From: Candidatus Pacearchaeota archaeon
Lineage (GTDB): Archaea > Nanobdellota > Nanobdellia > Pacearchaeales > GW2011-AR1
NCBI GenBank assembly: GCA_018303755.1
Contig: JAGVXO010000009.1
Span: forward strand, 1-56,711
Direction: 5' to 3'
Length of the DNA stretch: 56,711 nt
The position numbers and the translations under genes are program-made. This document shows positions 1,388 through 56,430 of the stretch, one piece after another. The notes under the pieces were generated by a model. The model did no database searches, was not told where the DNA came from, and worked only from the letters and a program-made list of their open reading frames with translations. Within the stretch, counting starts at the first letter, position 1. Each line of letters begins with the position of its first letter.

Positions 1388-1665
1388 ATGAAAAGATATT
1401 AAATATTTTAATTATTAAAGATTAAAAGAATAAACCTTCAATGAAAAGATATTAAATAATGGAAAAGAATGGTTGGTTGTTAGCAAAATAAACTCGCTCG
1501 CCATTCGGGCTCGCCTTATTTTGGTTCGCTCTGCTCACTTATCTAATTCTGCAAATCTCTAATTCATTTATACTTTGGTTCTTCAGATGATTTTAATTAA
1601 AAGAATAAAACTTCAATTAAAAGATGTTAAATAAGGAAAAGTTATGGGGTGTTAGAAAAATAGTT
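1388..1665 (-). repeat. Modular intergenic repeat family, two partial units
   Basis: Contains ctcgctcgcc..gggctcgcc, cacttatctaattctgcaaat and aaataaggaaaagttatggggtgttagaaaaa, also seen at 30650-30942; boundaries approximate. Confidence 0.75.
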
Positions 1666-1700
1666 CCTTATATTAAATTAAAATTAACTTATGAAGAAGA

Positions 1701-2093
1701 TTAATACATCTCGGTTCTTCTTGACTCATCCATTGCAGGCACTGGATTTTCTGGTATTGTTATCTCTGCAAATGAAGGTGTTGCAATTATAATATTTTCT
1801 CCAAAGCCAGTTATATTGCCCTCAAGCGCCTCTGTAGTTTTCTTTATTTTTGAAACAGCTCTTTTAAGCTCGATTATGTCTTTTTTTCTCAATGCCTGTA
1901 TATCTATAATAGCTATAGTATATCCCTCTCTTAGCGCATTAAGTATCTCATTTACATCTTCAAATTTTCTTAGAACAAAAGGCCTTACGCCGACTTTCAT
2001 CCTTTTTTCTTCTTGTCCAACATCAACTTCAAAATAGTCGCTTCCTTCAGAAGAATTTCCTCCCACCAATTTTTTTAATTTATCGAACACCAT
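1701..2093 (-). CDS. sepF: Cell division protein SepF
   Basis: Archaeal SepF pattern: ILNALREGYTIAIIDI, ELKRAVSKIK, GNITGFGENIIIATP. Confidence 0.85.
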   Translation of the reverse strand: MVFDKLKKLVGGNSSEGSDYFEVDVGQEEKRMKVGVRPFVLRKFEDVNEILNALREGYTIAIIDIQALRKKDIIELKRAVSKIKKTTEALEGNITGFGENIIIATPSFAEITIPENPVPAMDESRRTEMY

Positions 2094-2132
2094 ATTAAAT
2101 TTAAATTCGGCTGGTTTATAAAGATTTCTATA

Positions 2133-2462
2133 TTACTTTATTTTTTCCATTATTTCGCCCCTAATTCTTTCAATTTCCTCCCTTATTTCAAGCTCGTGCT
2201 TTTCAACTGTCTTTAATTTTATCCCAACGAGTTTAAGCCTTTCTTCAAGCTCTTTTTTAAGCGTTTCCTTGTCTGATTTTATCATTATCTGCCCTAAAAC
2301 GCGAAAAACCTCTCCCTTTGCCTTACCCAGCTCTTCAAGTGCGGTTTTTGATTCGCTTTCATCAATCTGAAGCGCCTGCTTTTGCATTGCAATTCCCTGA
2401 AAATTCTGTTCAAGAATCTGCAATTCCTGCATTTTCTCATTGGTTTCTTTGTCTATTTGCAT
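2133..2462 (-). CDS. pfdB: Prefoldin beta subunit
   Basis: Coiled coil with the VFRVLGQIMIK beta-hairpin; usual neighbour of rpo12 and rpl37ae. Confidence 0.9.
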   Translation of the reverse strand: MQIDKETNEKMQELQILEQNFQGIAMQKQALQIDESESKTALEELGKAKGEVFRVLGQIMIKSDKETLKKELEERLKLVGIKLKTVEKHELEIREEIERIRGEIMEKIK

Positions 2463-2467
2463 TTTGC

Positions 2468-2605
2468 TCAGTCAGTTTTTATTTTTGCTACAGCGCTTCT
2501 TGGCTTGTAGAATATTTTTGAATTGCAGAAAGGGCATGTAAATCTCTTGTCAAGTTTTTTCGATGAGATTTTTTTCCCACATTTGAAACATTTGTATTCT
2601 GCCAT
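2468..2605 (-). CDS. rpo12: RNA polymerase subunit P (Rpo12)
   Basis: Not in the ORF track; manual translation MAEYKCFKCGKKISSKKLDKRFTCPFCNSKIFYKPR... gives a zinc ribbon; lies between rpl37ae and pfdB. Confidence 0.9.
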   Translation of the reverse strand: MAEYKCFKCGKKISSKKLDKRFTCPFCNSKIFYKPRSAVAKIKTD

Positions 2606-2649
2606 ATTTTTATAAAATTGTTATTTATATTTAAAGGTTTGCTATTTAA

Positions 2650-2865
2650 TTATTCAAGATAGTAAGCTCCGCCTGCAAATGTTTTCCCGCATTTTTTGCA
2701 CTGCCATATTCCTGCATATTTTCTTTTTGCAGTAAGATTACTGCAGAAAGGGCATTTTTGTTTTTTTCTCTGCTTTGATTCAACAGCGACGAATTTTGCT
2801 CTTACATTAGTGCCATAGCCTGCTCCGAACTTTCCACTTGCTTTTACTTTTTTTGTTCGCACCAT
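2650..2865 (-). CDS. rpl37ae: 50S ribosomal protein L37ae
   Basis: GKFGAGYG, CPFC...GIWQCKKCGKTFAGGAY. Confidence 0.95.
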   Translation of the reverse strand: MVRTKKVKASGKFGAGYGTNVRAKFVAVESKQRKKQKCPFCSNLTAKRKYAGIWQCKKCGKTFAGGAYYLE

Positions 2866-3109
2866 TTGGTTTGTTGCTTTAAATTTTGTTTAATTCTGCT
2901 ATTGTATCAAAAAGATAGTTTTAAAATGTTTTGATATGGGGTTGCGCCCGAGCAATTGCACGAGCTAAAGGGGTTTATACAACGAGTGCAATCGCGAGTA
3001 GCAGGCGCGCTTGATAATTTAATTAATATCAAAAAAGAAAAAGGCAAATTGAAAAAATGTGAAATAAGGCAAAGCTATGGGATATTTAAAGAAGTGAATT
3101 AGTGCACTA

Positions 3110-3270
3110 TGTGCTTGTTTTATTCTGCAAAATTGTTAACCCTTGATACATTAGCTATTCTGCTTTTTAATTGATACTCTTTAAGATATGCTAAAGATTA
3201 AAATAAAAATAATAAAATTCCAATAAAAAAATATTGAATAAGGGAAAAGAATGGCGTGTTAGAAAAATTA
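3110..3270 (-). repeat. Modular intergenic repeat family copy
   Basis: cttgttttattctgcaaaattgttaa...aataagggaaaagaatggcgtgttagaaaaa. Confidence 0.7.
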
Positions 3271-3287
3271 AAAAGTATTTTCAACAT

Positions 3288-4676: not shown

Positions 4677-4839
4677 GGGTTTAAAAGAATTAAAGTGTAT
4701 TTAAAGTTTGTTCTCAATACATTGCAGGGCATCAGGGAGGCTATTAAGATATTATAATCTAAATTTTTGAAAATTGACTTAACCAATTTAATATTAATAA
4801 TCAATGTTTTATTTTTGTCTAATAATCACTTATCGGATA

Positions 4840-4920
4840 TAGATTCCAATGTATAAATCGGATTAAGGATTTGCAGAATAAAAAAAGGCGAGCGAGGCGA
4901 ATCCGAGCGAGCCAATATCT
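4840..4920 (+). repeat. Modular intergenic repeat family, partial copy upstream of iscS
   Basis: ccaatgtataaatcggattaaggatttgcagaataaaaaaaggcgagcgaggcgaatccgagcgagccaat. Confidence 0.75.
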
Positions 4921-6202: not shown

Positions 6203-7654
6203 ATGTACAATAAAAAAACTTTTCAGATATTCAATAACCCTAAATTTTCAGGAGAAATAAAAAACGCAGATGCAGTTGGGCAGGTGGGAAATATGCGCTG
6301 TGGAGACGTTATGAAGATATTTTTGAAAGTTGATAAAAAAACAAAAAAGATTAAAGATATAAAATTTCAAACCTATGGGTGTTTACCCCCACAAGAAAAA
6401 GTGAATCTAAGGGGAAAATGGAAAGAAATATCTAATTTATCTGAATCAGAAAATGTTCTCAATGGCAATGGAAATGAAACCACAATAAAAAAGATATTCA
6501 AAAGAGATTATCATGGAGATTTATTAAAATTTATCCCTTTTGTTTCTCCGTATAATGCTTTTTATGTAACACCAGAACATCCTATTTTATGTATAAAAAG
6601 AAAACGTATTAAAAAAACAAAGAAAGCATACTCAAAAAGTGCTTGGCTTATGGTCAACCATGATGAATTAATGTCTACTAAACCTGATTATACAGAAGCA
6701 GGAAATTTAGAAACTGGAGATTATTTAGTATTTTCATATAATAAAAAAGTTATAAACAAAAAAGAATATACCAACTCGTTTTTAAGGCTAATAGGCTATT
6801 ACTTATCAGAGGGCTACGTAAGTGCTAAGGGTGGTGCAATTGGTTTTGCGTTTAATAAAAAAGAAAAAGAATATATTGAAGAGGTTAAAAAGTTAATTGA
6901 AGATGTTGTATTAAAAGAAGCTAAATCAAGAGTAAGAGCCAATGTTGAAGAAGTCTATGTTAATTCACGTGAGTTTGTCAGAAAAATATTAAAAGAGGCA
7001 GGGAAACTGGCTACAAAAAAAAGATTATCAAAGGAAATTATGTTACTCCCCCCAAAAAGACAATTAGAGATTATTGAAACTTATTTAAATGGAGATGGAG
7101 ATCTTTATTTTAGAAGAAAAGGCAACACGGCAACGTATCGCCTTGCTACTTCATCAGAAAGCTTAGCAATACAACTTCAAGAGATTTTAGCAAGAAATAA
7201 AATTTTTGCCTCAATTCGTAAACGAATACAAAAAGAGAGTAATATTGGTGGTAGAATTATTAGGGGAGGTCAAGAGTTGTTTATCGTCTCATACAAAAAA
7301 GATAGAAAGCATAAATTTGTACACCCAACAAGAAACTATTTTTTAGTTCCAATTAAAAAAATAGAAAAAGAAAAATATGGAGGAAAGGTTTATAATTTTG
7401 AGGTTTCATCTGAACCCAATTCTTATCTTGTTAGAGGATTCGTTGTGCATAATTGCATCGCCGCGATAACAGCATCTGAGATTATGTGCAAGCTCGCAAA
7501 AGGAAAAACTTTAGAGCAGGCAATGAAAATAAACCCAGAAGATATTGTTAAAAAGTTGGGTGAAGTGCCTGAAATTAAATTTCATTGTTCAATACTCGGC
7601 ACGCAGGCATTAAGAAAGGCGATTGAGAATTATAAAGAGAAAGTGAAAGATTAA
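6203..7654 (+). CDS. iscU: Fe-S scaffold IscU/NifU-N (125 aa after splicing) interrupted by an intein
   Basis: Exteins GNMRCGDVMKIFLKV...KFQTYG and CIAAITASE...KFHCSILG supply the three IscU cysteines; directly follows iscS. Confidence 0.92.
   Translation: MYNKKTFQIFNNPKFSGEIKNADAVGQVGNMRCGDVMKIFLKVDKKTKKIKDIKFQTYGCLPPQEKVNLRGKWKEISNLSESENVLNGNGNETTIKKIFKRDYHGDLLKFIPFVSPYNAFYVTPEHPILCIKRKRIKKTKKAYSKSAWLMVNHDELMSTKPDYTEAGNLETGDYLVFSYNKKVINKKEYTNSFLRLIGYYLSEGYVSAKGGAIGFAFNKKEKEYIEEVKKLIEDVVLKEAKSRVRANVEEVYVNSREFVRKILKEAGKLATKKRLSKEIMLLPPKRQLEIIETYLNGDGDLYFRRKGNTATYRLATSSESLAIQLQEILARNKIFASIRKRIQKESNIGGRIIRGGQELFIVSYKKDRKHKFVHPTRNYFLVPIKKIEKEKYGGKVYNFEVSSEPNSYLVRGFVVHNCIAAITASEIMCKLAKGKTLEQAMKINPEDIVKKLGEVPEIKFHCSILGTQALRKAIENYKEKVKD
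6380..7453 (+). mobile_element. Intein (358 aa) with LAGLIDADG homing endonuclease
   Basis: Block A CLPPQEKV, block B VTPEHPI, LAGLIDADG blocks LIGYYLSEG and IETYLNGDG, block F VYNFEV, block G VVHN followed by +1 Cys. Confidence 0.93.
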
Positions 7655-7659: not shown

Positions 7660-7820
7660 TAATTGGCTCGCTCCGCTCGCTTATCTATTTTTTTAAATCC
7701 CTAATCCACTTGGCATTTTGATTTTTATGCTTTTAATTGGTATTAAGAATAAACTAAAAAGGGAAATAAAAAGTTATTGAATAAGGGAAAAGTTATTGAA
7801 TAAGGGAAAAGTTATTGAAA
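7660..7820 (-). repeat. Modular intergenic repeat copy with an internal 19-bp tandem (about 2.7 units)
   Basis: ttggctcgctccgctcgcttatctatt...aaatccctaatcc; unit aaaagttattgaataaggg repeated over 7769-7819. Confidence 0.7.
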
Positions 7821-12609: not shown

Positions 12610-12724
12610 GTTAAACTTAATTTCAGGCGATTTATAAGTTTTATTGCGTTGGACAGAGTGGTTAATTGAAGAAGAAATTAAACAAGTGTGAGCGAGATAA
12701 TCTGAATATTCTGCTGACATCTCA

Positions 12725-13075
12725 TTCTTTTTCCTTATTTTACGCCATTTCAATTCTCTTTTTCCTTATTTTACATTAAATATAAATTAAAACATATAAA
12801 TAAAGCATATAAAAATAGATGTATCAAGCGGATTAAGAATTTGCAAAATAGAACAGGCGCGAAGCGCACCATCTTAAGTAAGGCGAGCGAACAGAAGGTG
12901 AGCGAGCATAAATACTTATTTTAATTATTTTGCTAACCTCCCATAACTTTCCCTTATCTTATGTTTGATTATTGGTGCTTTTTCTATTTTATCTTGATAT
13001 AAATAAATAACAAAGAGCCAATGTACCAATGGTTAGCAGATTTGCAGAATAAACAGGCGAGCCGCAACGAGCAAA
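12725..13075 (+). repeat. Modular intergenic repeat family, two tandem units
   Basis: ttttccttattt...gattaagaatttgcaaaatagaacaggcgcgaagcg, then gctaacctcccataactttcccttat...ccaatgtacc..ttagcagatttgcagaataaacaggcgagc. Confidence 0.8.
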
Positions 13076-16517: not shown

Positions 16518-16536
16518 ACTCCAAAAGATTATTTTA

Positions 16537-16738
16537 TTTTTCTAACATCCCATTCTTTTTCCTTATTTTAAGTTTGTTAATGGGTGTTTTTATTTTATCT
16601 TTATTAAATTTATTCAATGTTTAATTAAATTATATAAATTCCAATGTATAACCCAATTAGCAGATTTGAAAAAAATAAAACTGAGCGAAGCGAAGCAAAT
16701 TCATCAGGCGAGCGAGGCGAAGCCGAGCGAGCCAATAT
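16537..16738 (+). repeat. Modular intergenic repeat family copy
   Basis: ctaacatcccattctttttccttattt...ccaatgtataa..ttagcagatttg...ggcgagcgaggcgaagccgagcgagccaat. Confidence 0.8.
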
Positions 16739-40533: not shown

Positions 40534-40534
40534 A

Positions 40535-40909
40535 ATGTCACAAGATTTAATTTCAGATACGCTGAACCAGATACTGAATGCCAAGAGAATAGGCAAAGAG
40601 CAGGTAGTTGTAAAAAGAGCATCAAAACTGCTTCTTAATGTGCTTGAAATTGCGCAGAAATACGAGTATATAAAAGATTTCAAAAAAACCGGGAAATCTA
40701 TTGAGATAATAATAGGCAATATAAACAACTGCGGAGCTGTAAAGCCAAGGTTTAATGTTACAAGAAAAACTCTCGAGAAATATATGAAAAGATATCTTCC
40801 GGCAAGGGATTTCGGAATACTTCTTATATCTACAAATCAGGGAGTTATGACTCATCAGGATTCGATTGAAAAAAAGACAGGAGGATGCCTTATAGCATAT
40901 TTTTACTAG
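40535..40909 (+). CDS. rps8: 30S ribosomal protein S8
   Basis: MSQDLISDTLNQILNA, CGAVKPRF, STNQGVMTH, GGCLIAY; start moved to 40535. Confidence 0.96.
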   Translation: MSQDLISDTLNQILNAKRIGKEQVVVKRASKLLLNVLEIAQKYEYIKDFKKTGKSIEIIIGNINNCGAVKPRFNVTRKTLEKYMKRYLPARDFGILLISTNQGVMTHQDSIEKKTGGCLIAYFY

Positions 40910-40912
40910 AAG

Positions 40913-41461
40913 ATGAAAAAAGAAATAAAAGAAAAACTTGAATTTCCAGAGGGAATTGATTTCGAAATAATAGGAAATATAATTCATGTAAAAGGAAGTG
41001 GAAAAGAATCAAAAATGAAGTTTAATATTGAAAACGTTTCAATAAAAAAACACGAAAATAATATTCTCATTGAGTCAAAAAAAGCGACAAAAAAAGAGCT
41101 TAAAATGATTAACACATTTATTGCACATGTTAAAAATATGATAAAAGGAATTAAAGAGGAATTTATTTACAAGCTCGAAATATGCTATGTTCATTTTCCA
41201 ATGACTTTGGAAGTTGACAAGGCAAAAGGGCTTGTTATAATAAAAAATTTTCTCGGAGAGAAAAAGCCGAGAACTTCAAAAATTTTGAAAGGTGCAGAGA
41301 TTGTTATTGAGAAAAATAAAATAATTGTCAGCTCTAACAGCAAAGAAATTGCAGGGCAGACTGCTGCAAATCTTGAAAAAGCAACATGGGTTAGAAACCG
41401 GGACAGGAGAAAATTTCAGGATGGGATATTTATGACAGAAAAATGCGGGAGGCACATATAA
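40913..41461 (+). CDS. rpl6: 50S ribosomal protein L6
   Basis: YVHFPM, NFLGEK, RDRRKFQDGI. Confidence 0.96.
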   Translation: MKKEIKEKLEFPEGIDFEIIGNIIHVKGSGKESKMKFNIENVSIKKHENNILIESKKATKKELKMINTFIAHVKNMIKGIKEEFIYKLEICYVHFPMTLEVDKAKGLVIIKNFLGEKKPRTSKILKGAEIVIEKNKIIVSSNSKEIAGQTAANLEKATWVRNRDRRKFQDGIFMTEKCGRHI

Positions 41462-41865
41462 TGGCAAAGAAAAAAGCCCCTAAATTTTTAAGAAGAAATA
41501 CAACCAAATACCTTCGACTTGGAAAGAGAAGAAAAAAATTGCAGAAATGGACAAGCCCGAGAGGGCGCGACAATAAAATGCGCATTATGCGAAAAGGATA
41601 TCCTGCTATTGTAAGAGTTGGATATAAAAATGAAATTACTTCAAGAGGGCTTATTGAAGGAAAAATTCCAGTAGTTGTAAGAAATGTTTCAGAATTGCTG
41701 CAGATTTCAGATAATAATATTGCAGTAATAGGCAGAGTCGGAGCAAAAAAAAGAAAAGAAATTGCAAAGGCAATTAAAGAAAAAAACATTCCTGTTGCAA
41801 ATCTTAATGTGAATAAAATACTTGCAGAAAAAGAGAATAAATTTGAAGGAGAAAACGCAAAATGA
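41461..41865 (+). CDS. rpl32e: 50S ribosomal protein L32e
   Basis: PKFLR, WTSPRGRDNKMR, VRVGY. Confidence 0.94.
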   Translation: MAKKKAPKFLRRNTTKYLRLGKRRKKLQKWTSPRGRDNKMRIMRKGYPAIVRVGYKNEITSRGLIEGKIPVVVRNVSELLQISDNNIAVIGRVGAKKRKEIAKAIKEKNIPVANLNVNKILAEKENKFEGENAK

Positions 41866-42257
41866 ATTTGAAACCAAAGAAAAAACTTGCTGTGAAAGTT
41901 CTTGGAGTTGGTGCTGAGAGAATAAAATTCAATTCAGAAAGAATCAATGAAATAAAAGAAGCAATTACAAGGCAGGATATAAAGGAGCTTGTTAAGAGCG
42001 GGGCAATAGAGATAATTTCTGCAAAAGGAAGAAAAAAAATAGTCAAAAGAACAACAAGAAGAAGGGCTGGAAAAGTAAAGAAAAAGATTAAAAACAGAAA
42101 ACAGAATTATGTAAAACTAACGCGAAAATTAAGAAGATATATTAAGGAGCTTAAATCTCATGGAGGAATTGAAGAAAAGAAATACCTCGCATTGAGGAAT
42201 TCAATAAAAAACAGTGAGTTTAGGAGCAAACAGCATCTTAAGGAGTTATTAAAATGA
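41862..42257 (+). CDS. rpl19e: 50S ribosomal protein L19e
   Basis: KKLAVKVLGVG..RI, EAITRQDI. Confidence 0.94.
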   Translation: MNLKPKKKLAVKVLGVGAERIKFNSERINEIKEAITRQDIKELVKSGAIEIISAKGRKKIVKRTTRRRAGKVKKKIKNRKQNYVKLTRKLRRYIKELKSHGGIEEKKYLALRNSIKNSEFRSKQHLKELLK

Positions 42258-42760
42258 AAACCCCAAGAAAAAGAAGAATTCAGTCAAAAACAGATTATAG
42301 AAAAAGAATGGCATTTTTAAAATCAGGTAAGCCAAGAATTGTAGTCAGGCGGACGAATAAATACCTGATTATTCAGTATGTTAAGAGTGTAGAGTCAAAA
42401 GATTCCGTTATCCTTGGAATTACCTCAAAAGAACTTCTCAAATATGGCTGGCCTAAAACTTCTTTAGGTTCGCTGAAATCAATAACTGCGGCATATCTTG
42501 CAGGATATCTTGCAGGAAGAAAAATAGTTAAAAAAGAAAAAAAACATTCAGCCATAGCAGACATAGGGATTCATAGGAATGTTCATGGAAGCAGGATATA
42601 TTCAGCAATAAAAGGAATTGTCGATGCAGGAGTGAATCTATCCTATGATAATAGTGTGGCGCCGTCTGAAGACAGAATTAAAGGCAGGCATTTGAGTTCA
42701 GAGGCAAAAAATGTTTTTGAAAAAGTTAAAGAGGCAATTGATAAACAGGAGCAGAAATGA
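42254..42760 (+). CDS. rpl18: 50S ribosomal protein L18
   Basis: KTDYRKR..LKSGKPRIVVRRTN, AAYLAG. Confidence 0.96.
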   Translation: MKTPRKRRIQSKTDYRKRMAFLKSGKPRIVVRRTNKYLIIQYVKSVESKDSVILGITSKELLKYGWPKTSLGSLKSITAAYLAGYLAGRKIVKKEKKHSAIADIGIHRNVHGSRIYSAIKGIVDAGVNLSYDNSVAPSEDRIKGRHLSSEAKNVFEKVKEAIDKQEQK

Positions 42761-43569
42761 GCGAAAAAAAATCAATCGAGAAAAAAGCAGAAAAAATTCT
42801 GGAAATTGTACCAGAAGAGATACTTGAAGCGCCCGTAGAAGAAATTTTAAAAGAAGCAGTTGCAACACCTGAAGAAAAAAGGGAAATATTTGGAGAACGC
42901 GGCAGACGCAGAAGAAAATCAGAGCAGGAGCTTGCAGAAGAAAGAGTTTCAAGCTGGGCGCCTAAAACCAAACTTGGAAAGCTTGTTAAATCTGGAAAAA
43001 TAACAGACATTGATGAAATTCTCGATAGAAAAATGAGAATCCTAGAGCCGGAAATTACAGAATCACTTTTAAGGCTTGAGAGTGAGCTTCTTTTTACAGG
43101 GCAGTCAAAAGGAAAATTCGGAGGAGGAAAAAGAAGAGCGTGGAGGCAGACACAGAAAAAAACAAAAGAAGGCAATGTTGTGACTTTTTCTGCATTTGTA
43201 GTTGTAGGAGATAAAAATGGGCATGTCGGGCTTGGATTTGGAAAAGCAAAAGAAACTCTTCCTGCAAGGGAAAAAGCAATAAGGCGCGCGAAAACAAATA
43301 TAATAAAATTTAGAAGAGGTTCTGGAAGTTTTGAGGGCTCTTCATCTGAACTCCACAGCATTCCGTTCAGAGTTACAGGCAAATGTGCAGGTTCAAAAAT
43401 TATTCTTATTCCTGCTCCACAGGGAACAGGGCTTGTAATAGGGGATGAAGGAAAAAAAGTTCTTCGCCTTGCTGGAATAAAAGATATTTACAGCCAGTCA
43501 TTTGGACAGACAAGAACAACAATAAACTTCATAAAGGCAATAATGAATGCATTGGAGAAGTTGAAATGA
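42757..43569 (+). CDS. rps5: 30S ribosomal protein S5
   Basis: WAPKTKLGKLV, VVVGDKNGHVGLG, PAPQGTGL. Confidence 0.96.
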   Translation: MSEKKSIEKKAEKILEIVPEEILEAPVEEILKEAVATPEEKREIFGERGRRRRKSEQELAEERVSSWAPKTKLGKLVKSGKITDIDEILDRKMRILEPEITESLLRLESELLFTGQSKGKFGGGKRRAWRQTQKKTKEGNVVTFSAFVVVGDKNGHVGLGFGKAKETLPAREKAIRRAKTNIIKFRRGSGSFEGSSSELHSIPFRVTGKCAGSKIILIPAPQGTGLVIGDEGKKVLRLAGIKDIYSQSFGQTRTTINFIKAIMNALEKLK

Positions 43570-43982
43570 TAGCAGTAATAAGAATTCATGGGATGGTTGA
43601 TATGAACGAACGTTTAGAGAATACTCTTTCAAGAATGCGATTAAGAAGAAAATATGCCTGCACTCTTATTCCTGAAAATAAAGTCACTCTCGGAATGCTT
43701 AAAAAAGTGAGAAGCTTTGTTGCATATGGAGATATAAATGATGAAACACTTGTTGAACTTATTGCCAAAAGAGGAAAGTTGTTGGATAAAACAAAAAAAA
43801 TCGATGCAAAAAAAATTGCAGAATTAATCCAGAAAAATGAAAATTTTGAAGATACAGGAATAAAGCCGTTTTTCCGTCTTCATCCGCCGAGAAAAGGGAT
43901 AAACTCAAAACAGCATTTTCCAAAAGGCGTTTTGGGAAATCATAGAGAAAAAATAAATGATTTGCTCAGGAGGATGTTGTAA
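43566..43982 (+). CDS. rpl30: 50S ribosomal protein L30
   Basis: MIAVIRIHG, GMLKKV, FFRLHPPRKG. Confidence 0.96.
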   Translation: MIAVIRIHGMVDMNERLENTLSRMRLRRKYACTLIPENKVTLGMLKKVRSFVAYGDINDETLVELIAKRGKLLDKTKKIDAKKIAELIQKNENFEDTGIKPFFRLHPPRKGINSKQHFPKGVLGNHREKINDLLRRML

Positions 43983-43983
43983 A

Positions 43984-44403
43984 ATGCGCCTTCACAAAAA
44001 AAGAAAAAAAGTTTCGAGAATGCACGGAAGCCATACTCATGGAAGGGGTGGAATGAAAAAAGCAAGGGGCTCTGGGCATAGAGGAGGAAAAGGAATGGCT
44101 GGAACAGGAAAAAGAGCAGACCAGAAAAAAACACTTATCCTTAATATGCCTGAAAAGTATTTTGGAAAAGATTCTCTTAAGCCAAAGCCTAAAAACTATG
44201 GAGTTATTAATATTAAAGACATTGAAAAGCGCGCAAATGGAAAAAGCGAAGTTGATTTAAGCAATTTTAAACTTCTTGGTTCAGGAGAAATAACCTTTCC
44301 TGTAACTCTGAAAGTTTATTCTGCTTCAAAGTCAGCTGTTAAGAAAATTGAAAAAGCAGGCGGAAAGGTGATAGTGAAATATGGACATAAAGAATCTTCT
44401 TAA
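43984..44403 (+). CDS. rpl15: 50S ribosomal protein L15
   Basis: RMHGSHTHGRG, RGSGHRGGKGMAG, KIEKAGG. Confidence 0.96.
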   Translation: MRLHKKRKKVSRMHGSHTHGRGGMKKARGSGHRGGKGMAGTGKRADQKKTLILNMPEKYFGKDSLKPKPKNYGVINIKDIEKRANGKSEVDLSNFKLLGSGEITFPVTLKVYSASKSAVKKIEKAGGKVIVKYGHKESS

Positions 44404-45742
44404 GCATCTTCCTGAGATTGAACCTCCTCCAGAGAAGAAAGTTGGATTTGGAATTAAGTTAAAATGGACAATAATTATACTCGTGGCTTTTTTTATTCTC
44501 GCGAATATTTCTCTTTATGGACTTTCAAATAATGCTTTGGCAAGATTTGAAAATCTTGCAGTTATTCTCGGAACAGATTTTGGAAGCATAATTTCATTGG
44601 GTATCGGGCCAATTGTTATGGCATCAATTATTCTTCAGCTTCTTGTAGGAAGTCAGCTTCTTGAAATTGATACAAAAACAAGCGAAGGAAAAAAATACTT
44701 TCAGGGGTTGCAGAAGGTGCTGGTTTTTTTCTTTATTCTTTTTGAAGCTTCAATTTATGTTCTTATGAAAGGGCTGGAAGCAGTTCCTGGATATGAATGG
44801 CTGGTAATTCTTCAGCTTTGCCTAGGTGGGCTTGCAATAGTTTTTATGGATGAGCTTTCAACAAAATGGGGATTTGGTTCAGGAGTTTCTCTTTTTATCG
44901 CAGCAGGAATAAGCTGGAGATTATTTACAACACTATTCCAATTTATTGATACTCAAGGAAGTTTTGCAGCAACAGGAAAAGTTCTTGTTTTAATCAATTC
45001 ATTAATTTCAGGAAATCCAACAGGAGCATATCTTGCAGGCGCTGCAATTGTTGTGACAATATTAATTTTTCTTGCTGTTGTTTGGGCTCAGTCGCTGAAA
45101 ATAGAAATTCCTCTTTCATTTGACAGATTAAGAGGATATGGAATAAAATGGCCTTTGGCATTTTTTTATACTTCAGTTATGCCGGTTATTTTAGTTTCTG
45201 CACTTCTTGCAAATCTTCAACTTGGCGCAAGTCTTCTTGAAACCTGGCTCGGACATCCAACATTCCTTGGCGGATTTTCAAACGGCTCTCCTGTTTCTGG
45301 TTTTGCATTCTGGGTTGCAGGGGTTGATATTCTACAAAGCACTTTGACAGGAAGCTTTACAAAGGTTATGCTTTTGCAGGCATTGTTCCATACATTGTTT
45401 TATGTTTCTTTCAGTGTATTATTTGCAATCTTTTGGGTTAAAACAAGCGGGATGGATGCGCAAAGCCAGGCAAAGAATATTATGAATTCTGGGCTTACAA
45501 TTCCTGGCTTTAGAAAAGACGAGAGAATTTTAGAATCTGTCTTGGAAAGATATATTTTTCCATTGACCGTTATGGGAGGTGCAGCAATTGGAATTCTTGC
45601 ATCTGTTTCAAATGCAGTAGGAACTCTTGTTTCAGGAACAGCAATACTTCTGGTAATTATGATTATGTATCAAATGTATCAGAACATCGCGCAGCAGCAT
45701 TCAGTTGATATGTTCCCTGCGCTTAAGAAGATAATAAAGTGA
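44381..45742 (+). CDS. secY: Protein translocase SecY
   Basis: LGIGPIVMASII, KWGFGSGVSLFIAAG, IPGFR.D, SGTAILL. Confidence 0.97.
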   Translation: MDIKNLLKHLPEIEPPPEKKVGFGIKLKWTIIILVAFFILANISLYGLSNNALARFENLAVILGTDFGSIISLGIGPIVMASIILQLLVGSQLLEIDTKTSEGKKYFQGLQKVLVFFFILFEASIYVLMKGLEAVPGYEWLVILQLCLGGLAIVFMDELSTKWGFGSGVSLFIAAGISWRLFTTLFQFIDTQGSFAATGKVLVLINSLISGNPTGAYLAGAAIVVTILIFLAVVWAQSLKIEIPLSFDRLRGYGIKWPLAFFYTSVMPVILVSALLANLQLGASLLETWLGHPTFLGGFSNGSPVSGFAFWVAGVDILQSTLTGSFTKVMLLQALFHTLFYVSFSVLFAIFWVKTSGMDAQSQAKNIMNSGLTIPGFRKDERILESVLERYIFPLTVMGGAAIGILASVSNAVGTLVSGTAILLVIMIMYQMYQNIAQQHSVDMFPALKKIIK

Positions 45743-45768
45743 TTTTACCTTTAGGGTAAATAGATAAA

Positions 45769-46530
45769 ATGAAAATAGAAACAAGAAATAAAGTTAAGGA
45801 ATTAATTAAAAGAGTCATTTTATTAAAAATAGAGAATTATAACGCTGAAACAGAATATAGACCATTTTTTCAAGCAATTTTCACAAAAGAACAAGTTTTA
45901 ACACACACAATTATTCATTCATTTTATACCACGTTTGGAATTTCAATATATGAACAATTAGCAAAAGTCCTTGCAGAAGGTGCGGGATATGAAGCGTATA
46001 CTCAATATGATTTGTTAGGTGAAATTGATAATAGAACAGAAGCAATAATTTCGAAGATAGATATGGAATTAAGAAGCAATAAAAGAAGGCCAGATATGGA
46101 ATTGGAATTTGAAGAGATAAAAAATTCTATTCAAAAAGGAAAACTCCTACAAGACCCAGATAAAAGGGTAGATATTTTCATAAAGAAAAAAGATGGAACC
46201 GAGGCATATTTTGATATTACCTCACCTAAACCTAATATAAAAGAGTTTGTTGCACTCAAAAAGAAGCTTTTAATATGGATTGGACTAAGATTAAGTGCAG
46301 ATAAGAATACGAGAGTTATAGTTGCTTTAGGATTACCTTATAATCCTTATTATCCAAAACCTTACAAAAGATGGACTACGAGAAACATGTATGATTCCTG
46401 CCAATTAATGGTTGGTGAAGATTTTTGGAATTTTGTAGCAGGAGAAGAGATTTATGATGAATTTATAGAAATCTTTAAAGAAATTGGGGAAGAATTACGA
46501 GAGGAAATAAAAGAAATTGCAAAAAAATAA
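45769..46530 (+). CDS. Type II restriction endonuclease (resembles the TdeIII/MjaII type)
   Basis: HSFYTTFG.SIYEQ, PD-(D/E)xK-like VDIFI...YFDITSPKPN, PYNPY, GEDFWNFV; convergent with a methyltransferase. Confidence 0.75.
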   Translation: MKIETRNKVKELIKRVILLKIENYNAETEYRPFFQAIFTKEQVLTHTIIHSFYTTFGISIYEQLAKVLAEGAGYEAYTQYDLLGEIDNRTEAIISKIDMELRSNKRRPDMELEFEEIKNSIQKGKLLQDPDKRVDIFIKKKDGTEAYFDITSPKPNIKEFVALKKKLLIWIGLRLSADKNTRVIVALGLPYNPYYPKPYKRWTTRNMYDSCQLMVGEDFWNFVAGEEIYDEFIEIFKEIGEELREEIKEIAKK

Positions 46531-46531
46531 A

Positions 46532-48127
46532 TTATTTTTTCTTCATATGAAAAATAACCTCTGCATATGGTTGCCTATCCCTTTCTGTTCTATTTAACAC
46601 TGGTCTTTTAAATTGCTCAACTATCTTTAATCCGCTTTTTTCTGCGATGATTGGATAAAGATTATATTTATCATTTGCAACAATAAAGAAATCCCCATTA
46701 TCTTTAATAAATCTACTTATGTTTATGAAAACCTTGCTTATCCCTTCAACATATTCCTCTTTTGCCTTTTGCCCCTGTCCCTTGAATAGAGGACCTATTT
46801 CTTTATCATCTTTTCTTGGGATGTTAAAAAGATCATAGGCATACGCATGTTGCTCATGATAATCTATTTGACCAACATAAGGCGGAGAGGTGAAAACCCC
46901 ATCTATTTTCTTTTTAGTCAATAACTTATAAAACTCAAAGTTTTTCTTTTTAACCTCTTCGAATATATTTACCTTTCTTGAATCTCCATGGATTACATTA
47001 CTAAATACATTCTTTTTTAATCTTGAAAACTCATCAATTCTACTTATTGTGTCATAGGTGTATCGTATTAAATGTTTAACAATGGAATTTATTGGGATAC
47101 ATAATTTCTTATGCTTTCTACAATAATAAGGGCCAATTTGCGGTTTTGTTAAGGTTGCCAAATCAGAATGGGTCGTAGTTCGGCACGAACGAGCAGTCCT
47201 GCTTATAATAACTCTTAAAATATTCTTTAAATCCTCATTTTCAATTTCTTTTAAAAGTTTAATATAATAAAATAATTCTTGTCTTACTCTTTTTGAAAAC
47301 CATTTATTCAAAAAGTTATTCATCTCTTTTTCATTTATTAATCCAGATTTGTCTTTTGTTCCGTTCTTTTCAAAAAATTCTTCATTTTCTTTTAGAAATT
47401 GTTTAAGCTTTTCTTCTCCATATTGTTCTTCATTATTAATCACCCCTTTCCAAACCTTTTTCTTAAATTCCGGATTAGGAAAATATTTTTTGTTGAATTC
47501 ATTCAATTTTTCTTTTAATTCCTCATCAAATGAATCGTCAAATACTTCTTGACTAAATTCTCTTGTCTTAAAACAGATATCTCTAGCTTTTTTATCTAAA
47601 ATGGATAAATTATATTTTCCAACTTTACCTTTAGAAATCAAACAATTAAAATCAGAAATATCTATTCCAATTGAATGCAAGCCCAATTCTGAAGATTGAA
47701 CAAGCGTTGTTCCACTACCCATGAATGGGTCTAATATAATCTCTCCAGATTTGAAAAAAACTTCTTTTTTGAATGTATTAAGGTGGGAATCTAAAAAGTA
47801 TTCTACTAATTGAGGAATAAACTTTCCCTTATAGGGATGTAATCTGTGTACATGTTTTGTTGTATCAGATTCCTTTAAATGAGAAAAAGACAGACCCCAG
47901 TTAAGGTCATTACCTAATCTTTTTTTCCAGGCCTCTTCTTTTTTTGTGTTTTTTTCGTAATATACTTTTAGTTCATCTAAGTTAATTGCTACATTATTTT
48001 TATAAAAGGATTTAGGGACCCTTGCGTATTGAATAAGGTATTGAATATTAGAGATAGTTATTGGCCTGCCTAAGAATTTTGTTGCCCACTCTGATGCCTC
48101 TTTTATTGATAAAAGTTCTTGACTCAT
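46532..48127 (-). CDS. Amino-DNA methyltransferase (probably N4-cytosine) with N-terminal HTH
   Basis: HPYKGKFIPQL, motif I DPFMGSGTT ahead of motif IV TSPPY. Confidence 0.9.
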   Translation of the reverse strand: MSQELLSIKEASEWATKFLGRPITISNIQYLIQYARVPKSFYKNNVAINLDELKVYYEKNTKKEEAWKKRLGNDLNWGLSFSHLKESDTTKHVHRLHPYKGKFIPQLVEYFLDSHLNTFKKEVFFKSGEIILDPFMGSGTTLVQSSELGLHSIGIDISDFNCLISKGKVGKYNLSILDKKARDICFKTREFSQEVFDDSFDEELKEKLNEFNKKYFPNPEFKKKVWKGVINNEEQYGEEKLKQFLKENEEFFEKNGTKDKSGLINEKEMNNFLNKWFSKRVRQELFYYIKLLKEIENEDLKNILRVIISRTARSCRTTTHSDLATLTKPQIGPYYCRKHKKLCIPINSIVKHLIRYTYDTISRIDEFSRLKKNVFSNVIHGDSRKVNIFEEVKKKNFEFYKLLTKKKIDGVFTSPPYVGQIDYHEQHAYAYDLFNIPRKDDKEIGPLFKGQGQKAKEEYVEGISKVFINISRFIKDNGDFFIVANDKYNLYPIIAEKSGLKIVEQFKRPVLNRTERDRQPYAEVIFHMKKK

Positions 48128-48264
48128 TTTTCCTCTTTTTTTATTTTCTCTTCCATAAAAACTTCTATACTCCGCGATAATGCAACAGCATTCTTTTTAC
48201 AAAAGTTTCTATATTCTTCATAAGTGTTTTTATCAAGACTTAATGTAACATTCTTTTGAACCAT
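48124..48264 (-). CDS. Small RHH/CopG-like protein, candidate regulator of the R-M system
   Basis: Not in the ORF track; MVQKNVTLSLDKNTYEEYRNFCKKNAVALSRSIEVFM...; its stop overlaps the MTase ATG. Confidence 0.65.
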   Translation of the reverse strand: MVQKNVTLSLDKNTYEEYRNFCKKNAVALSRSIEVFMEEKIKKEEK

Positions 48265-48407
48265 ATTACCCCCTTATTTGAATTCAAATGTAAATAAATG
48301 AATAATCTATATAAATCTTTTGGCCCATTATTAAGTGGCAAACCAAAACTCTCATAACCCTATTAACTCTAAGTTAATAACTATTAACAAATTGTAAATA
48401 GAAAAGC

Positions 48408-48510
48408 AAAAAAAGACGTAAGTGGAGAGTGAATTCCCCAAACCATTTACACGCATACACGCTGGATACTTTGCATACACAAAGGTTTTACTGGTTCAGT
48501 CCACTTACTG
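48408..48510 (-). ncRNA. Candidate ~100-nt small structured RNA
   Basis: 9-bp terminal stem (48418-26 with 48500-08); minus-strand BRE/TATA gaaaattatataa at 48531-43; T7 run just after the stem. Confidence 0.5.
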
Positions 48511-48574
48511 AAATCTAATGGCCCGAGGGTTTATATAATTTTCGGGTTTGATGTTTGATAGCTATGTGTAAAAA

Positions 48575-48724
48575 CTAGTGCTTGACTTTTAGTTTTTTAA
48601 GCAAAGTATCGGCTGTGCCGATATAGTAAATAACTCTTTGCTTAACTTTTCCTTTAACTAAATAGCTTTCAACGATATAATAATAGTTTTTTCCTCTGAA
48701 TTGTTTCTTCCTGATAAATACCAT
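48575..48724 (-). CDS. 49-aa basic ORF inside the IS, resembling the N-terminus of IS1634-type transposases
   Basis: MVFIRKKQFRGKNYYYIVESYLVKGKVKQRVIYYIG... Confidence 0.6.
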   Translation of the reverse strand: MVFIRKKQFRGKNYYYIVESYLVKGKVKQRVIYYIGTADTLLKKLKVKH

Positions 48725-48833
48725 ATGATTATATACCCTTGAAGGTTATAAATATTTGTTAGGCATTATAGTATATAAATGTTGTTAATCTATCTTTAGT
48801 AAAGTATATTATCTTATTAGGCATTATACTGAG

Positions 48834-49763
48834 ATGGTTAAGAAAAAGAGGTGGCCAAGAGATGAAGTTTTATATAATAAAGTTCAAGAGTCAGAATTCT
48901 TGAATTTCTTTGAATTTGTGAGATATCTCACAAATTATATTTGTAAAGGAAGAAAAATGAAAAGTATGATTCAATGTTTATTAATCTGGAGAAAATTTCC
49001 AAATTTATCTGTAAGAAGAGCAAGAGGATTTCTCCTCTTGCTTAGAAGATTTGATATAATTTCTATTGATATTCCCTGTTTTAAAACATTATCAAATTAC
49101 AATGAAAACAATTCATTGCAGATAATTTTAGACAAATTAATAGAAAAAAGCTCTAAACCCTTATCCATTATTGAGCATGATTTTGCAACTGATTCAACTG
49201 GAATAAGGACTCAGTTATTTTCAACTTGGTTTAGTTTAAGATGCAAAAAAAGAATTAGAAGAAGAGATCACCTAACAGTGCATACTACTATTGGAGTTAA
49301 AAGCGGGATTGTAACTGCACTTAATATTGGGATAAACCAAGGAAAAGATAACAAAATTTTCAGAGAGCATGTTGATAAAACCTCTGAAAATTTTAAGGTT
49401 AATGAATGGTCTGGAGATGGAATGTACTGGTGCAAAAAGAATTGTAAAAAAGTTTCAGAAAAAGGCGGTAAGCCATATTTCAAATGCAAATCTTCTTGGA
49501 ATGGAAAGCAAGATGGCTTCCCATCTTGGAAAGAAATGAATAAAGATTTTGTAGAAAATAAAGAAGATTATGACAAACATTATCATAAGAGAAGTAATGT
49601 TGAATCAACAAATCACAGCAAGAAAGCATTGCATGGGAATTCGGTTTATTCTCGCCTGCCATCAGATAGGATAAACGAAGAAACTTTAAGATGGATTAAC
49701 TATAATATTAATGTTCTAAATCGGGCTAAATATGAATGGGATATTAATCCCTTAAGGGATTAA
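48834..49763 (+). CDS. DDE transposase (IS4/IS5-like)
   Basis: FATDSTG, WSGDGMY, YHKRSNVES (YREK-like) catalytic motifs. Confidence 0.88.
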   Translation: MVKKKRWPRDEVLYNKVQESEFLNFFEFVRYLTNYICKGRKMKSMIQCLLIWRKFPNLSVRRARGFLLLLRRFDIISIDIPCFKTLSNYNENNSLQIILDKLIEKSSKPLSIIEHDFATDSTGIRTQLFSTWFSLRCKKRIRRRDHLTVHTTIGVKSGIVTALNIGINQGKDNKIFREHVDKTSENFKVNEWSGDGMYWCKKNCKKVSEKGGKPYFKCKSSWNGKQDGFPSWKEMNKDFVENKEDYDKHYHKRSNVESTNHSKKALHGNSVYSRLPSDRINEETLRWINYNINVLNRAKYEWDINPLRD

Positions 49764-49775
49764 TTTACACATAGC

Positions 49776-49910
49776 CGCTCACTTAGATAATTTTTTAAAC
49801 CCTATACCATTTGTACATTGGCTATTTAAATAATTTAATCCATTTAAAAATAATAAAACACCAATGCGCTAACTTAAGGTAAGGAAAAGTTATTGAATGC
49901 TAGCAAAAAT
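49776..49910 (-). repeat. Modular intergenic repeat copy, truncated at the right end of the IS
   Basis: cgctcacttagataatt...tttgtacattgg...aataaaacaccaatg...taaggaaaagttattgaatgctagcaaaaa. Confidence 0.7.
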
Positions 49911-50219: not shown

Positions 50220-50963
50220 ATGGGTGCAAAAAAGAAATTTTATATATTCCTGTCATTTGTTCTTATTTCTTTATTAACGGCTGTACTCTCAGGATATTTT
50301 GGAATAAATCTCTCGCTTGTTGAAAATTTCATATCGATAAATCATTACCTTGCAATATTTCTTTACACCATCTTATTCACCCTGCTCACAACATTTGCTT
50401 TTTCATCAAATGCCCTAATTGGAATGTCTGCCTTGTTCTTTTCATCATATGAAGCAATTTTTTATTCAATGATTGGAATAATGGCAAGCTCAATAATTGA
50501 TTTTTATATCTCGCGCAAGCTTGGAAGAAATTATGTAAGAAACTATCTGGAAAAGCACGGCGGAGCATTGGAAAAATTTGATGAAATACTTGAAAAAGAC
50601 ACTTTTAAAACACTTCTTATTCTAAGTATCATTTTTTTTGTTCCAAGGATAATTCCCAATCTGCTTGGAGGAATTGTAAAAATAAATTTGAAAAAATATG
50701 CCCTTGCAACATTTTTAGGAAATCTTCCGACAGTTATCTGCATAGTCTATCTTATTAATGGAATATCCTACTCAAATTATCTGCAGATTTATGCTTCGGT
50801 TGCAGGATTGGTTTTAGTAAGCCTGGTTGCAATATATTTTTATAAAGGTGAAATGAACCATATTCTAAGATTAAGCTTTCCAAGCCTGGTTGCAATATAT
50901 TTTTATAAAGGTGAAATGAACCATATTCTAAGATTAAGCTTTCCGTGGATGTTTAGAAGATAA
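50220..50963 (+). CDS. TVP38/VTT (DedA superfamily) membrane protein
   Basis: FYISRKLGR, YALATFLGNLP; exact 63-bp tandem duplication at 50819-50944. Confidence 0.85.
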   Translation: MGAKKKFYIFLSFVLISLLTAVLSGYFGINLSLVENFISINHYLAIFLYTILFTLLTTFAFSSNALIGMSALFFSSYEAIFYSMIGIMASSIIDFYISRKLGRNYVRNYLEKHGGALEKFDEILEKDTFKTLLILSIIFFVPRIIPNLLGGIVKINLKKYALATFLGNLPTVICIVYLINGISYSNYLQIYASVAGLVLVSLVAIYFYKGEMNHILRLSFPSLVAIYFYKGEMNHILRLSFPWMFRR

Positions 50964-54896: not shown

Positions 54897-54959
54897 TAAT
54901 AGATAAAACAAGCAGGGTTTAAAAAGAGTTTTATGGTTGAAATACACCCTAAAATTAAT

Positions 54960-55153
54960 TCTTCTAACATCCCATAACTTTCTCTTATTTAATGTTTGTT
55001 CATTGGTGTTTTTTATTTAAAGTCCAATTTGCGAAATATTCTAATTGAAATAGGTAAAATTTTATGTACAAACAGATAAGGATTTGCAGAATAAACAAGC
55101 GAGGCGAAGCCGAGCCACTAATTGTACTTGTGGCGAGCCCGCAGGCGAGCCAA
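54960..55153 (+). repeat. Modular intergenic repeat family, full-length copy
   Basis: ctaacatcccataactttctcttattt / cattggtgttttttatt / gataaggatttgcagaataaacaagcgaggcgaagccgagcc...ggcgagcccgcaggcgagccaa. Confidence 0.82.
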
Positions 55154-55213
55154 ACTCAAACCAAAAATAATCAGCAAAACATTTATAAACATATAACCAC
55201 TATATAATTCACT

Positions 55214-55429
55214 ATGGAAACTACAATACAAATAAGCAAGGAGTTGCTTAATAAACTTGCTGAAATGAAAATGCATGAAAAAGAAAGTTATGAAAGTATA
55301 ATATGGGACTTAATAGAAGACAGGCTTGAATTTTCAGGAGAAACAAAAAGAAATATTGCAAATTCTGAAATTGAAATAATGGCAGGAAAAACAATTTCTC
55401 TTGATACAATCAAGAAAAAAATGAGGTAA
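55214..55429 (+). CDS. RHH-type antitoxin
   Basis: METTIQISKE...ESYESII; upstream of a RelE gene. Confidence 0.8.
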   Translation: METTIQISKELLNKLAEMKMHEKESYESIIWDLIEDRLEFSGETKRNIANSEIEIMAGKTISLDTIKKKMR

Positions 55430-55430
55430 A

Positions 55431-55679
55431 ATGTATTCTGTTGAATTTTCAGAAACAGCGAACAGGCAGTTCGATAAACTGGAAAAAGGCATTCAATTAA
55501 GAGTTGTAAATGTTCTAGAAAGAATAAAAATCAGGCCTTATCATTTTATAAAAAGAAAAGAAGGAACAAATTATTTTATAGCAAGGATAGGCGAGCATAG
55601 GGCAATCCTTAGCATAGATGATGCAAGAAAAATAATTTTTGTTCTTGAAGTCGGACATAGAAAAAAGGTTTATGATTAA
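55431..55679 (+). CDS. RelE/ParE-family toxin
   Basis: MYSVEFSETA...RIGEHRAI...VGHRKKVY. Confidence 0.88.
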   Translation: MYSVEFSETANRQFDKLEKGIQLRVVNVLERIKIRPYHFIKRKEGTNYFIARIGEHRAILSIDDARKIIFVLEVGHRKKVYD

Positions 55680-55750
55680 ATTTTTTATCTTATCAAAGAA
55701 TCCTTTAGATTATAGGAAACTTTATAAACTATAGCTTCCTATGGTTAGCT

Positions 55751-56020
55751 ATGGTTACTACAATACAAATAGAAGAAAAATTAAAAGATAAATTAGACAA
55801 ACTTAAAGTTCATCATAGAGAATCTTATAATGATTTAATAGTTCGGCTTATCAATTCTTTTTCTCCCAATAATTTTGATAAAGAAAGCTTGATAGAAACA
55901 ATTGAAATTTTATCAGATCCAGATACAATGCGGGCTATTGCAGAATCTCTCGAAGAGTATGAAAAGGGAAGAGGCATAGAATTTTTCAAATTAAAAAAAG
56001 AGCTCAAATTAAATGTATAA
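55751..56020 (+). CDS. RHH-type antitoxin
   Basis: MVTTIQI...ESYNDLI...ETIEILSDP. Confidence 0.8.
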   Translation: MVTTIQIEEKLKDKLDKLKVHHRESYNDLIVRLINSFSPNNFDKESLIETIEILSDPDTMRAIAESLEEYEKGRGIEFFKLKKELKLNV

Positions 56021-56264
56021 AATAATTCTTGAAAAACAACCAGAGAACTTTTTAAGAAAGCTTGATAAAATAGAACAGGAAAGAATAGCAAAGAAATTAA
56101 ATTTTCTTGAGGATAATCCTTATTTGGGCAAACCTTTAATCGGGAAATTATCGGGATTATGGAGTTTGCGAATTGGAGATTATAGGGCAATATATCGATT
56201 GAATAATGAGGAACTTATAATTTTAATTTTAAAGATAGGGCATAGAAAGAATATTTATGATTAA
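56013..56264 (+). CDS. RelE/ParE-family toxin
   Basis: GKPL.GKLSGLWSLRIGDYRAIY...IGHRKNIY. Confidence 0.9.
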   Translation: MYKIILEKQPENFLRKLDKIEQERIAKKLNFLEDNPYLGKPLIGKLSGLWSLRIGDYRAIYRLNNEELIILILKIGHRKNIYD

Positions 56265-56281
56265 TCTTCCGTATATGTTTA

Positions 56282-56430
56282 TTTTTCTATCACTCCATAC
56301 CTTTTCCCCTTTTACATTTTAAAATAAATTAAATCACCAAAATGGATGGATTAAGGATTTACAAAAAATTAAACAAGTGAGCGAAGCGAACCAATTCATA
56401 TAAAAAACAAAAAGCGGGCTTCGCCCGCTT
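56282..56430 (+). repeat. Modular intergenic repeat copy ending in a perfect hairpin
   Basis: ggattaaggatttacaaaaaattaaacaagtgagcgaagcgaaccaa; aagcgggc-ttc-gcccgctt at 56412-56430. Confidence 0.72.

Follow-up and report, generated by a model that had tools for sequence, protein, structure and literature searches.

The subject of this report is a small modular repeat located between the genes of a tiny groundwater archaeon (Candidatus Pacearchaeota), on a stretch of DNA of 56,711 nucleotides (nt) that is referred to here as the window (positions 1 to 56,711 of contig JAGVXO010000009.1, assembly GCA_018303755.1). We propose, with moderate confidence, that it is a genus-restricted intergenic repeat, composed of an inverted pair of a 36-bp arm together with small hairpin modules, and likely a non-autonomous element moved in trans by a putative nicking enzyme. 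A profile hidden Markov model (HMM), built from 13 window copies and then refined on 120 copies from the genome, was searched with nhmmer against the assembly (G000; 769,330 bases, 81.6% complete) and identified 228 copies at E<0.01; neither the reversed genome nor a locally shuffled genome returned a match. The repeat amounts to 29.5 kb of the 769-kb assembly (3.8%), or approximately 23% of its non-coding DNA.

Each unit measures 150–170 bases, is non-coding, and displays the following order of modules: arm A, which is rich in pyrimidines; a spacer that is AT-rich and varies in length; arm C, which is rich in purines; and one to four GC hairpins (D). Arm A is conserved over 36 bp. A preliminary description of the window had stated that the copies have no terminal inverted repeats. 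This was incorrect because C is a diverged inverted copy of A: at a fixed position, a matrix built on bases 1–20 of A scored 0.26 on the reverse complement of the C end, in comparison with −11.1 for shuffles. The core is therefore bounded by imperfect terminal inverted repeats, and D is localized outside them. The D hairpins mostly possess three-base GNA loops; judged by eye on the alignment and the hairpin list, they are approximately 13–18 nt long with A-rich flanks, with a unit no more than 200 bp away in 122 of 124 cases. Folding of D with DNA parameters favoured the top strand (98 vs. 43 of 173), while RNA parameters gave no strand preference. Base-pair-like covariation was confined to D, the consensus fold being nearly empty, and no long fold across the unit was supported when one copy was folded on both strands (z 0.04 and 0.99). 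A long RNA or DNA hairpin spanning the unit was rejected on these grounds. A flanking repeat of at least seven bases, taken as a target duplication, was present at 2 of 87 loci against a null of 8.1, with the caveat that old copies may have lost their duplications. A module of about 55 bp (10-bp stem, long loop) recurs between D hairpins, at 2940–3010 of the window and at several other loci. The D pattern was found in 23 of 401 genomes of the order (control 1), and an A–C unit was absent from 20 loci inspected in six of these genomes. In two other genomes of the family, G327 (L091–L093) and G130 (L103–L107), a D-type hairpin sits on different and apparently unrelated intergenic repeats.

Within the window the profile HMM placed 16 units at 11 loci (E 1e-7 to 1e-28), and the order of the modules was the same across an alignment of the 16 window segments; a repeat finder also showed families at the loci that the preliminary description had named. 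The units are listed below, the E values being nhmmer matches to the profile HMM.

1401–1490, minus strand: half unit (arm A and spacer), second of a head-to-tail doublet; model positions 2–87, E 8.8e-8.
1493–1662, minus strand: full unit with all modules (A, spacer, C, D) and one more D hairpin around 1493–1520; E 2.1e-28 for 1523–1662, extra hairpin from the sequence.
2940–3093, minus strand: half unit (arm A, 3013–3093) followed by the long-loop hairpin module; E 2.1e-8 and sequence.
3102–3269, minus strand: full unit; E 5.5e-21.
4803–4916, plus strand: unit without arm A (spacer, C, D), upstream of iscS; model positions 50–149, E 1.8e-12.
7665–7820, minus strand: unit whose A arm has a 19-bp slippage repeat; E 3.8e-16, repeat-finder family D11.
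12707–12910, plus strand: first member of a doublet next to the start of ftsZ, a full unit with an additional hairpin; E 2.7e-23 and sequence.
12926–13072, plus strand: second member of the ftsZ doublet, also a full unit; E 1.7e-27.
16535–16736, plus strand: full unit with a second hairpin, between convergent genes; E 4.8e-23 and sequence.
27139–27278, plus strand: full unit, first of a doublet downstream of the template repeat (TR) of a diversity-generating retroelement (DGR); E 4.4e-23.
27292–27431, plus strand: second member of this doublet, also a full unit; E 1.9e-17.
30648–30771, minus strand: second member of a doublet, its D decayed; in the congener G001 the orthologous junction is empty, with a gap of 76 bp; E 4.8e-21.
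30777–30943, minus strand: full unit with two D hairpins, arm A beginning 2 bases past the upstream stop codon; E 9.8e-24 and sequence.
49776–49908, minus strand: unit with a D hairpin truncated by a DDE insertion sequence (IS), at the right end of the latter; E 8.4e-20 and IS ends.
54957–55153, plus strand: full unit located upstream of toxin-antitoxin-like genes, with two D hairpins; E 3.7e-26.
56280–56430, plus strand: unit with a shortened spacer and an extra hairpin; E 5.9e-12 and sequence.

The recurrence of ordered modules at 11 loci, as first described, was borne out, and the same holds for the inverted match of 30777–30815 with 55115–55153 (37/39 identical), for the lack of open reading frames in the copies and for their absence from the ribosomal superoperon: only 4 of the 228 copies overlapped a gene called by our own simple gene caller by more than 30 bp, and the profile HMM detected no copy in 32000–48500. 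The tandem doublets, counted as four, are actually five, the half copy at 3013–3093 having been overlooked. A preference for junctions with accessory genes proved weak; 17 of 22 genes flanked by repeats on both sides were without a homologue in the fetched part of G001, vs. 507 of 891 other genes (p=0.079). No Rfam family fell on any window copy, and the window matches above the gathering threshold, RT-16 and a tRNA, both lie off the repeats. The 228 copies, 140 of them full length, make up 169 loci (114 single, 52 double, 2 triple and 1 quadruple). Units run head to tail in 55/55 multi-unit loci, and mixed orientation was seen at none of the 169. Locus orientation agreed with local gene direction in 86/169 cases and with a weak skew proxy in 77/169, and a replichore bias of orientation was rejected on this basis. 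Of 25 cases of loci one gene apart, 19 had the same orientation (p=0.015). On contig C20 (33 kb; L022–L023), the 11 repeat loci all point one way despite mixed gene direction, and one-way orientation was likewise observed on C35 (6/6) and C4 (5/5). A scan for sigma-70 promoters and terminators, the model of which does not cover archaeal signals, gave chance levels only.

The distribution of the repeat was evaluated in 21 genomes of the genus, among which G001 shows 58% mean protein identity to G000 and was fetched for 693 kb of about 900 kb. An arm model was trained on G000, G001, G005, G010 and one G007 copy, and matches were counted at E≤0.001 among the best candidates of each genome (at most 150 scored). 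Arm A was present in 9 of the 21 genomes, with at least 144 matches in G001, at least 129 in G007, at least 123 in G000, 29 in G014 and 1–6 in five genomes; the other twelve had none. The fetched part of G001 as a whole contained 172 arm matches (control 0). The full-unit model produced one weak match only among the 20 congeners, and the arm model, under stricter filters, 1 weak match in 130 other genomes of the family. BLAST of one copy against 30 relatives returned weak matches only, the two inspected appearing spurious, and one motif scan of viral contigs found nothing. On an unrooted SecY+L15+L30 tree of the 21 genomes, the four high-copy genomes, a group named beforehand, do not form a clade (approximately unbiased test, p-AU 0.0004); the near relatives of G014 had 0 matches (G009, 93% complete) and 1 match (G011). 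Large expansions have taken place in three separate lineages.

Comparison of G000 with G001 revealed that the arm arrangement is permuted between the two. An inverted arm was located directly upstream of A in 44/167 G001 arms vs. 13/134 G000 loci, and downstream of A in 22/167 vs. 39/134, and AT-rich hairpins replace D in the G001 copies viewed. At 113 junctions with conserved neighbours, the repeat was found in G000 only at 7, in G001 only at 13 and in both at 4 (p=0.06 for sharing); among the empty orthologous forms are genes that overlap and gaps a few bases long. Gene order was broken at 19/30 repeat-bearing and 18/35 repeat-free junctions of similar gap size (p=0.45). Filled and empty junctions in which gene order is not broken more often are consistent with a cargo-free element entering junctions and argue against cassette boundaries.

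Identity among 139 full copies had a mean of 65% and a maximum of 91%, with a median of 76% to the nearest neighbour. Tandem neighbours were no closer than random pairs (65% vs. 65%, n=22), and the identities of the A-half and the C-half were uncorrelated (rho 0.017). When two-way subtypes of five blocks were compared, 9 of 10 pairs assorted independently, the exception being two adjacent blocks. Our interpretation is that the family is old and that blocks are exchanged among its copies. Among contigs of the same species, one 29-bp hairpin unit was absent from one contig, possibly an assembly difference. Four DNA runs, in which other organisms are mixed in, contained no joint removing a whole unit among the matches listed. 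At two loci near repeats (L069 and L085 vs. G000:C31:21006 and 29069), the same 25-bp flank is followed by insertions of 98 and 42 bp that begin identically; they represent strain polymorphism or an assembly difference.

One D hairpin on contig C20 is interrupted by an IS1111 element of about 1.3 kb (G000:C20:23358–24675; L023:6858–8175), which carries an IS110-family gene (PF01548, PF02371) and 13-bp subterminal inverted repeats. It is inserted in the hairpin loop, and its removal restores the hairpin. The right end of the element folds into two stem-loops (z −3.5), and two variable segments match its own flanks at 15/17 bases, vs. 2–6 for the other five flanks. Nine related loci were found and five compared, leaving out two truncated, one masked and one distant; three of these five homologues match their own flanks best (15, 14 and 10), and two do not (6 and 6). 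The IS1111 homologues in other DPANN genomes carry different guides. Bridge RNAs of IS1111 elements, with a structured right end and guide segments, are described in the accessible part of PMC11208160. That of the C20 element is predicted to be programmed against one D hairpin variant, which suggests that the IS parasitises the repeat instead of moving it. Allowing up to 3 mismatches, the target defined by the guides occurs at only 8 sites in G000, of which 6 belong to repeat loci, and at 4 in the fetched part of G001; the element itself is a single copy in G000. It appears to target one D variant and is unlikely to be the mover. As far as the accessible parts of PMC11208160 and of the ISPpu9 preprint (10.1101/2025.01.17.633520) describe them, the IS110/IS1111 elements that target repetitive extragenic palindromic (REP) sequences resemble the C20 element in the DEDD recombinase, the 13-bp subterminal inverted repeats, the structured right end, the site-matching variable guides and the insertion into a hairpin repeat. 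Unlike these elements, which are bacterial, the C20 element has an archaeal host, a different repeat family as its target, a single copy and a guide function predicted from its sequence.

In the mechanism that we propose, the arm would be the site recognised by a putative mobilising enzyme, and copies would be propagated by nicking of a single strand and re-insertion through a circle or a rolling circle, following the model for bacterial interspersed mosaic elements (BIMEs). We infer a single-strand route because target duplication is not seen, the hairpins are strand-specific, the units stack head to tail and their ends vary, by analogy with the BIME model in the accessible part of PMC3333891. 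Copies may later swap blocks by recombination or gene conversion, and selection probably keeps them out of genes and promoters. The filled and empty sites, the lineage-specific bursts and the IS in a hairpin support the initial suggestion of a REP/BIME-like or non-autonomous mobile element, and the repeat is likely a selfish one. We entertain, tentatively, the further idea that the arm is the substrate on which a novel archaeal enzyme acts by nicking or recombination, thereby spreading and reshuffling arms that lack hairpins; this would be a domesticated DPANN system parallel to REP-RAYT, unrelated to it and with its own RNA-guided parasite.

Several results weigh against a non-autonomous element moved in trans. 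A mobilising gene was not found; G000, at 81.6% completeness, has no match to Y1 transposase (PF01797), resolvase (PF00239) or GIY-YIG (PF01541). Y1 transposases are present in 13/21 congeners irrespective of copy number (in 3/4 high-copy and 8/12 zero-copy genomes), and arms lie beside only 1 of 8 Y1 loci examined, in a genome with at least 129 copies. Of the linked movers considered in the preliminary description, the RAYT/TnpA-type Y1 and the tyrosine recombinase (PF00589) are without a match in the G000 assembly; a reverse transcriptase (RT) gene is present, and no adenine signature was seen on the repeats. The conserved arm itself is no hairpin, unlike REP. Recent transposition is not visible at the maximum and nearest-neighbour identities given above, and a whole unit was gained or lost in 0/14 comparisons with same-species metagenome contigs. 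Filled vs. empty sites alone cannot separate gain from loss, and independent assortment of the blocks could partly stem from a star-like history.

The placement of the arm invites a different explanation, namely host-maintained punctuation, in which the arm would be a binding site or a transcription-termination signal, multiplied by gene conversion and kept by selection. Arm A follows a same-orientation stop codon above chance in both G000 (96/161, p=0.018) and G001 (89/152, p=0.042), with a median stop-to-arm distance of 25 bases; both ends of the unit are T-rich inward (51% and 43% T vs. 36% in repeat-free 3' spacers), and a gap of at least 40 bases to neighbouring gene starts is kept in 151/158 cases. 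Arm identity between G000 and G001 is 62%, a value raised by AT content and by the way in which the G001 arms had initially been detected, in comparison with 46.5% at four-fold sites (17,153 sites); transfer between lineages would explain it as well as selection. The stop-codon bias is, however, modest and could reflect selection against harmful insertions, positions are mostly unshared between G000 and G001, and the arm was not found in 12/21 congeners, two of these 93% complete. We consider punctuation rather unlikely as the reason for the repeat; termination or insulation as a putative side effect would fit the stop-codon placement, the T-rich ends and the downstream spacers that are kept. 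The inverted A and C ends would also suit a decayed classical MITE (miniature inverted-repeat transposable element), with terminal inverted repeats that were once cut and pasted by a DDE transposase and with D being a passenger or else a favoured neighbour. Matches to DDE_Tnp_1 were obtained for G001 and, weakly, for G000, while G004, G005 and G006 gave none, and some G001 head-to-head arm pairs are 123–128 bp apart. This origin is nevertheless unlikely in our estimation, given that target duplication was not seen, that no arm match occurred in three DDE loci scanned (in incomplete genomes), that the ends of the window DDE IS are unlike the arm by eye, and that G001 more often has tail-to-tail arms without outer ends. 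This IS (about 48563–49776) has a weak PF01609 match and terminal repeats of about 12 bp, and a truncated D hairpin adjoins its right end; an identical copy of this end, at C4:9320–9411, has no D hairpin beside it.

The preliminary description also raised recombination sites that shuffle gene cassettes. A Xer/dif site consists of two 11-bp inverted arms around a centre of 6–8 bp, and the integron attC site is a long single-strand hairpin that acts with an integron integrase. Sites of either type, excising and shuffling cassettes, would be in keeping with the head-to-tail arrays, with the shared orientation of loci one gene apart, and with a XerA-like tyrosine recombinase gene (L073:1127–1954) on a repeat-carrying metagenome contig that has no long match in the assembly. 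Arm A is not palindromic, however: its best palindrome pairs 4.2/11 bases (range 4.2 to 5.5 of 11) vs. 3.4 for shuffles, and the inner four positions are matched in 28% of G000 and 0% of G001 copies. A Xer core or a shared single dif site gained no support from this test. Strong XerA-like matches are also present in the repeat-free G004 and G006, with none found in G001, and neither the folding results, nor the assembly with its lack of PF00589, nor the frequency of gene-order breakpoints resembles what attC sites or cassette boundaries would give; we regard this reading as very unlikely. A likeness of the arm to ORB, hix and difH sites was also considered, but it seemed unconvincing and was dropped. 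Most improbable, in our judgement, is that the unit is a repeated non-coding RNA, or that the host DGR RT made it as a retro-copied element, D serving as the DGR target hairpin. G000 has an RT and a DGR whose variable repeat (VR) precedes a GAA-loop hairpin like D, and GRA loops in DGR target hairpins are described in the accessible part of PMC4372165. The repeats themselves show no adenine-biased change (A retained 0.765, T 0.78), as opposed to the TR-to-VR changes, 14/15 of which are at A; consensus RNA structure is lacking beyond D, with z about 0, so that structure does not support a repeated RNA as first suggested, and in the G001 copies viewed it is the replacement of D by AT-rich hairpins that speaks against such a target. 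The DGR occupies 25988–27048 of the window, with the VR of the target gene at 26576–26660, the GAA-loop hairpin after it, the TR at 26964–27048 and the Rfam RT-16 match at 26794–26965; an RT gene lies on contig C31 (L017:3–968).

Among known archaeal repeats, the palindrome-associated transposable elements (PATEs) of haloarchaea are IS200/IS605 derivatives with a hairpin near each end. Shared features are the archaeal host, a non-autonomous and hairpin-bearing nature and no target duplication; unlike PATEs, the present repeat has hairpins at one end only. With REP/BIME and TnpA-REP, as presented in the accessible part of PMC3333891, it shares hundreds of intergenic copies, units of alternating orientation, variable tandem arrays, imperfect GC hairpins with strand-specific mismatch and a role as IS target; the features seen here were inverted arms, tandem arrays (55), extragenic position, more than 100 copies (228) and an IS1111 target. 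A REP/BIME unit is a palindrome of 20–40 nt with a GTAG foot. In the present repeat, what is conserved is a 36-bp arm that is not a palindrome, a GTAG foot was not visible at D by eye, the hairpins share one direction and give way to others in the G001 copies viewed, the host belongs to DPANN, and a linked Y1 transposase was not found in the incomplete G000. BOX, RUP and SPRITE of Streptococcus pneumoniae, according to the accessible part of PMC3049150, are similarly small and modular repeats, one module of which varies in number; they proliferated long ago, are spread unevenly among related species and may have been co-opted as terminators. BOX and RUP make target duplications and fold extensively in the same account, neither of which was seen in the present repeat, and its variable module lies, unlike that of BOX, outside the inverted arms. 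BOX elements are defined by boxA-boxB(n)-boxC modules together with terminal inverted repeats, a target duplication and a folded transcript; of these, modularity is shared. Prokaryotic MITEs, in the accessible part of the review PMC10969869, are likewise short, AT-rich and non-coding with inverted ends, and QMITE2 of Coxiella is an IS1111 target too; unlike MITEs, the present repeat has no target duplication, no transposase with matching ends was found among three DDE loci scanned in incomplete genomes, and its arm arrangements are permuted. The repeat behaves like BIME and BOX repeats and is a new variant of the BIME/BOX/MITE class. We have filed it as a new variant of small non-autonomous interspersed repeats, and not as a BIME or BOX member, because a GTAG-footed palindrome, target duplication and a linked enzyme were not found.

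DPANN genomes are regarded as stripped down. Here, a single repeat makes up about 23% of the non-coding DNA of one, and its near relatives span from none detected to well over 100 copies. We found no paper on such repeats in Pacearchaeota, Woesearchaeota or DPANN in the literature, most subscription papers being outside reach; the accessible part of the MITE review (PMC10969869) has 0 mentions of DPANN, and that of a recent preprint on non-coding mining does not mention it. The spread and mosaicism of small repeats without target duplications are unsettled even for REP and BOX, and repeat spread becomes testable by comparison in a genus where expansions occurred three times separately and empty sites are known. 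The C20 IS1111 is, in addition, a natural archaeal bridge-recombinase candidate with a predicted target.

Other features of the window were observed outside the repeats. An IscU/NifU-like gene at 6203–7654 carries a LAGLIDADG intein, and contigs in three runs skip 6378–7476, as intein-free alleles would. A perfect 63-bp tandem duplication, possibly an assembly artefact, is located inside a membrane-protein gene at 50819–50944. Directly after secY, at 45769–48127, lie a TdeIII-like restriction endonuclease and a DNA methylase.

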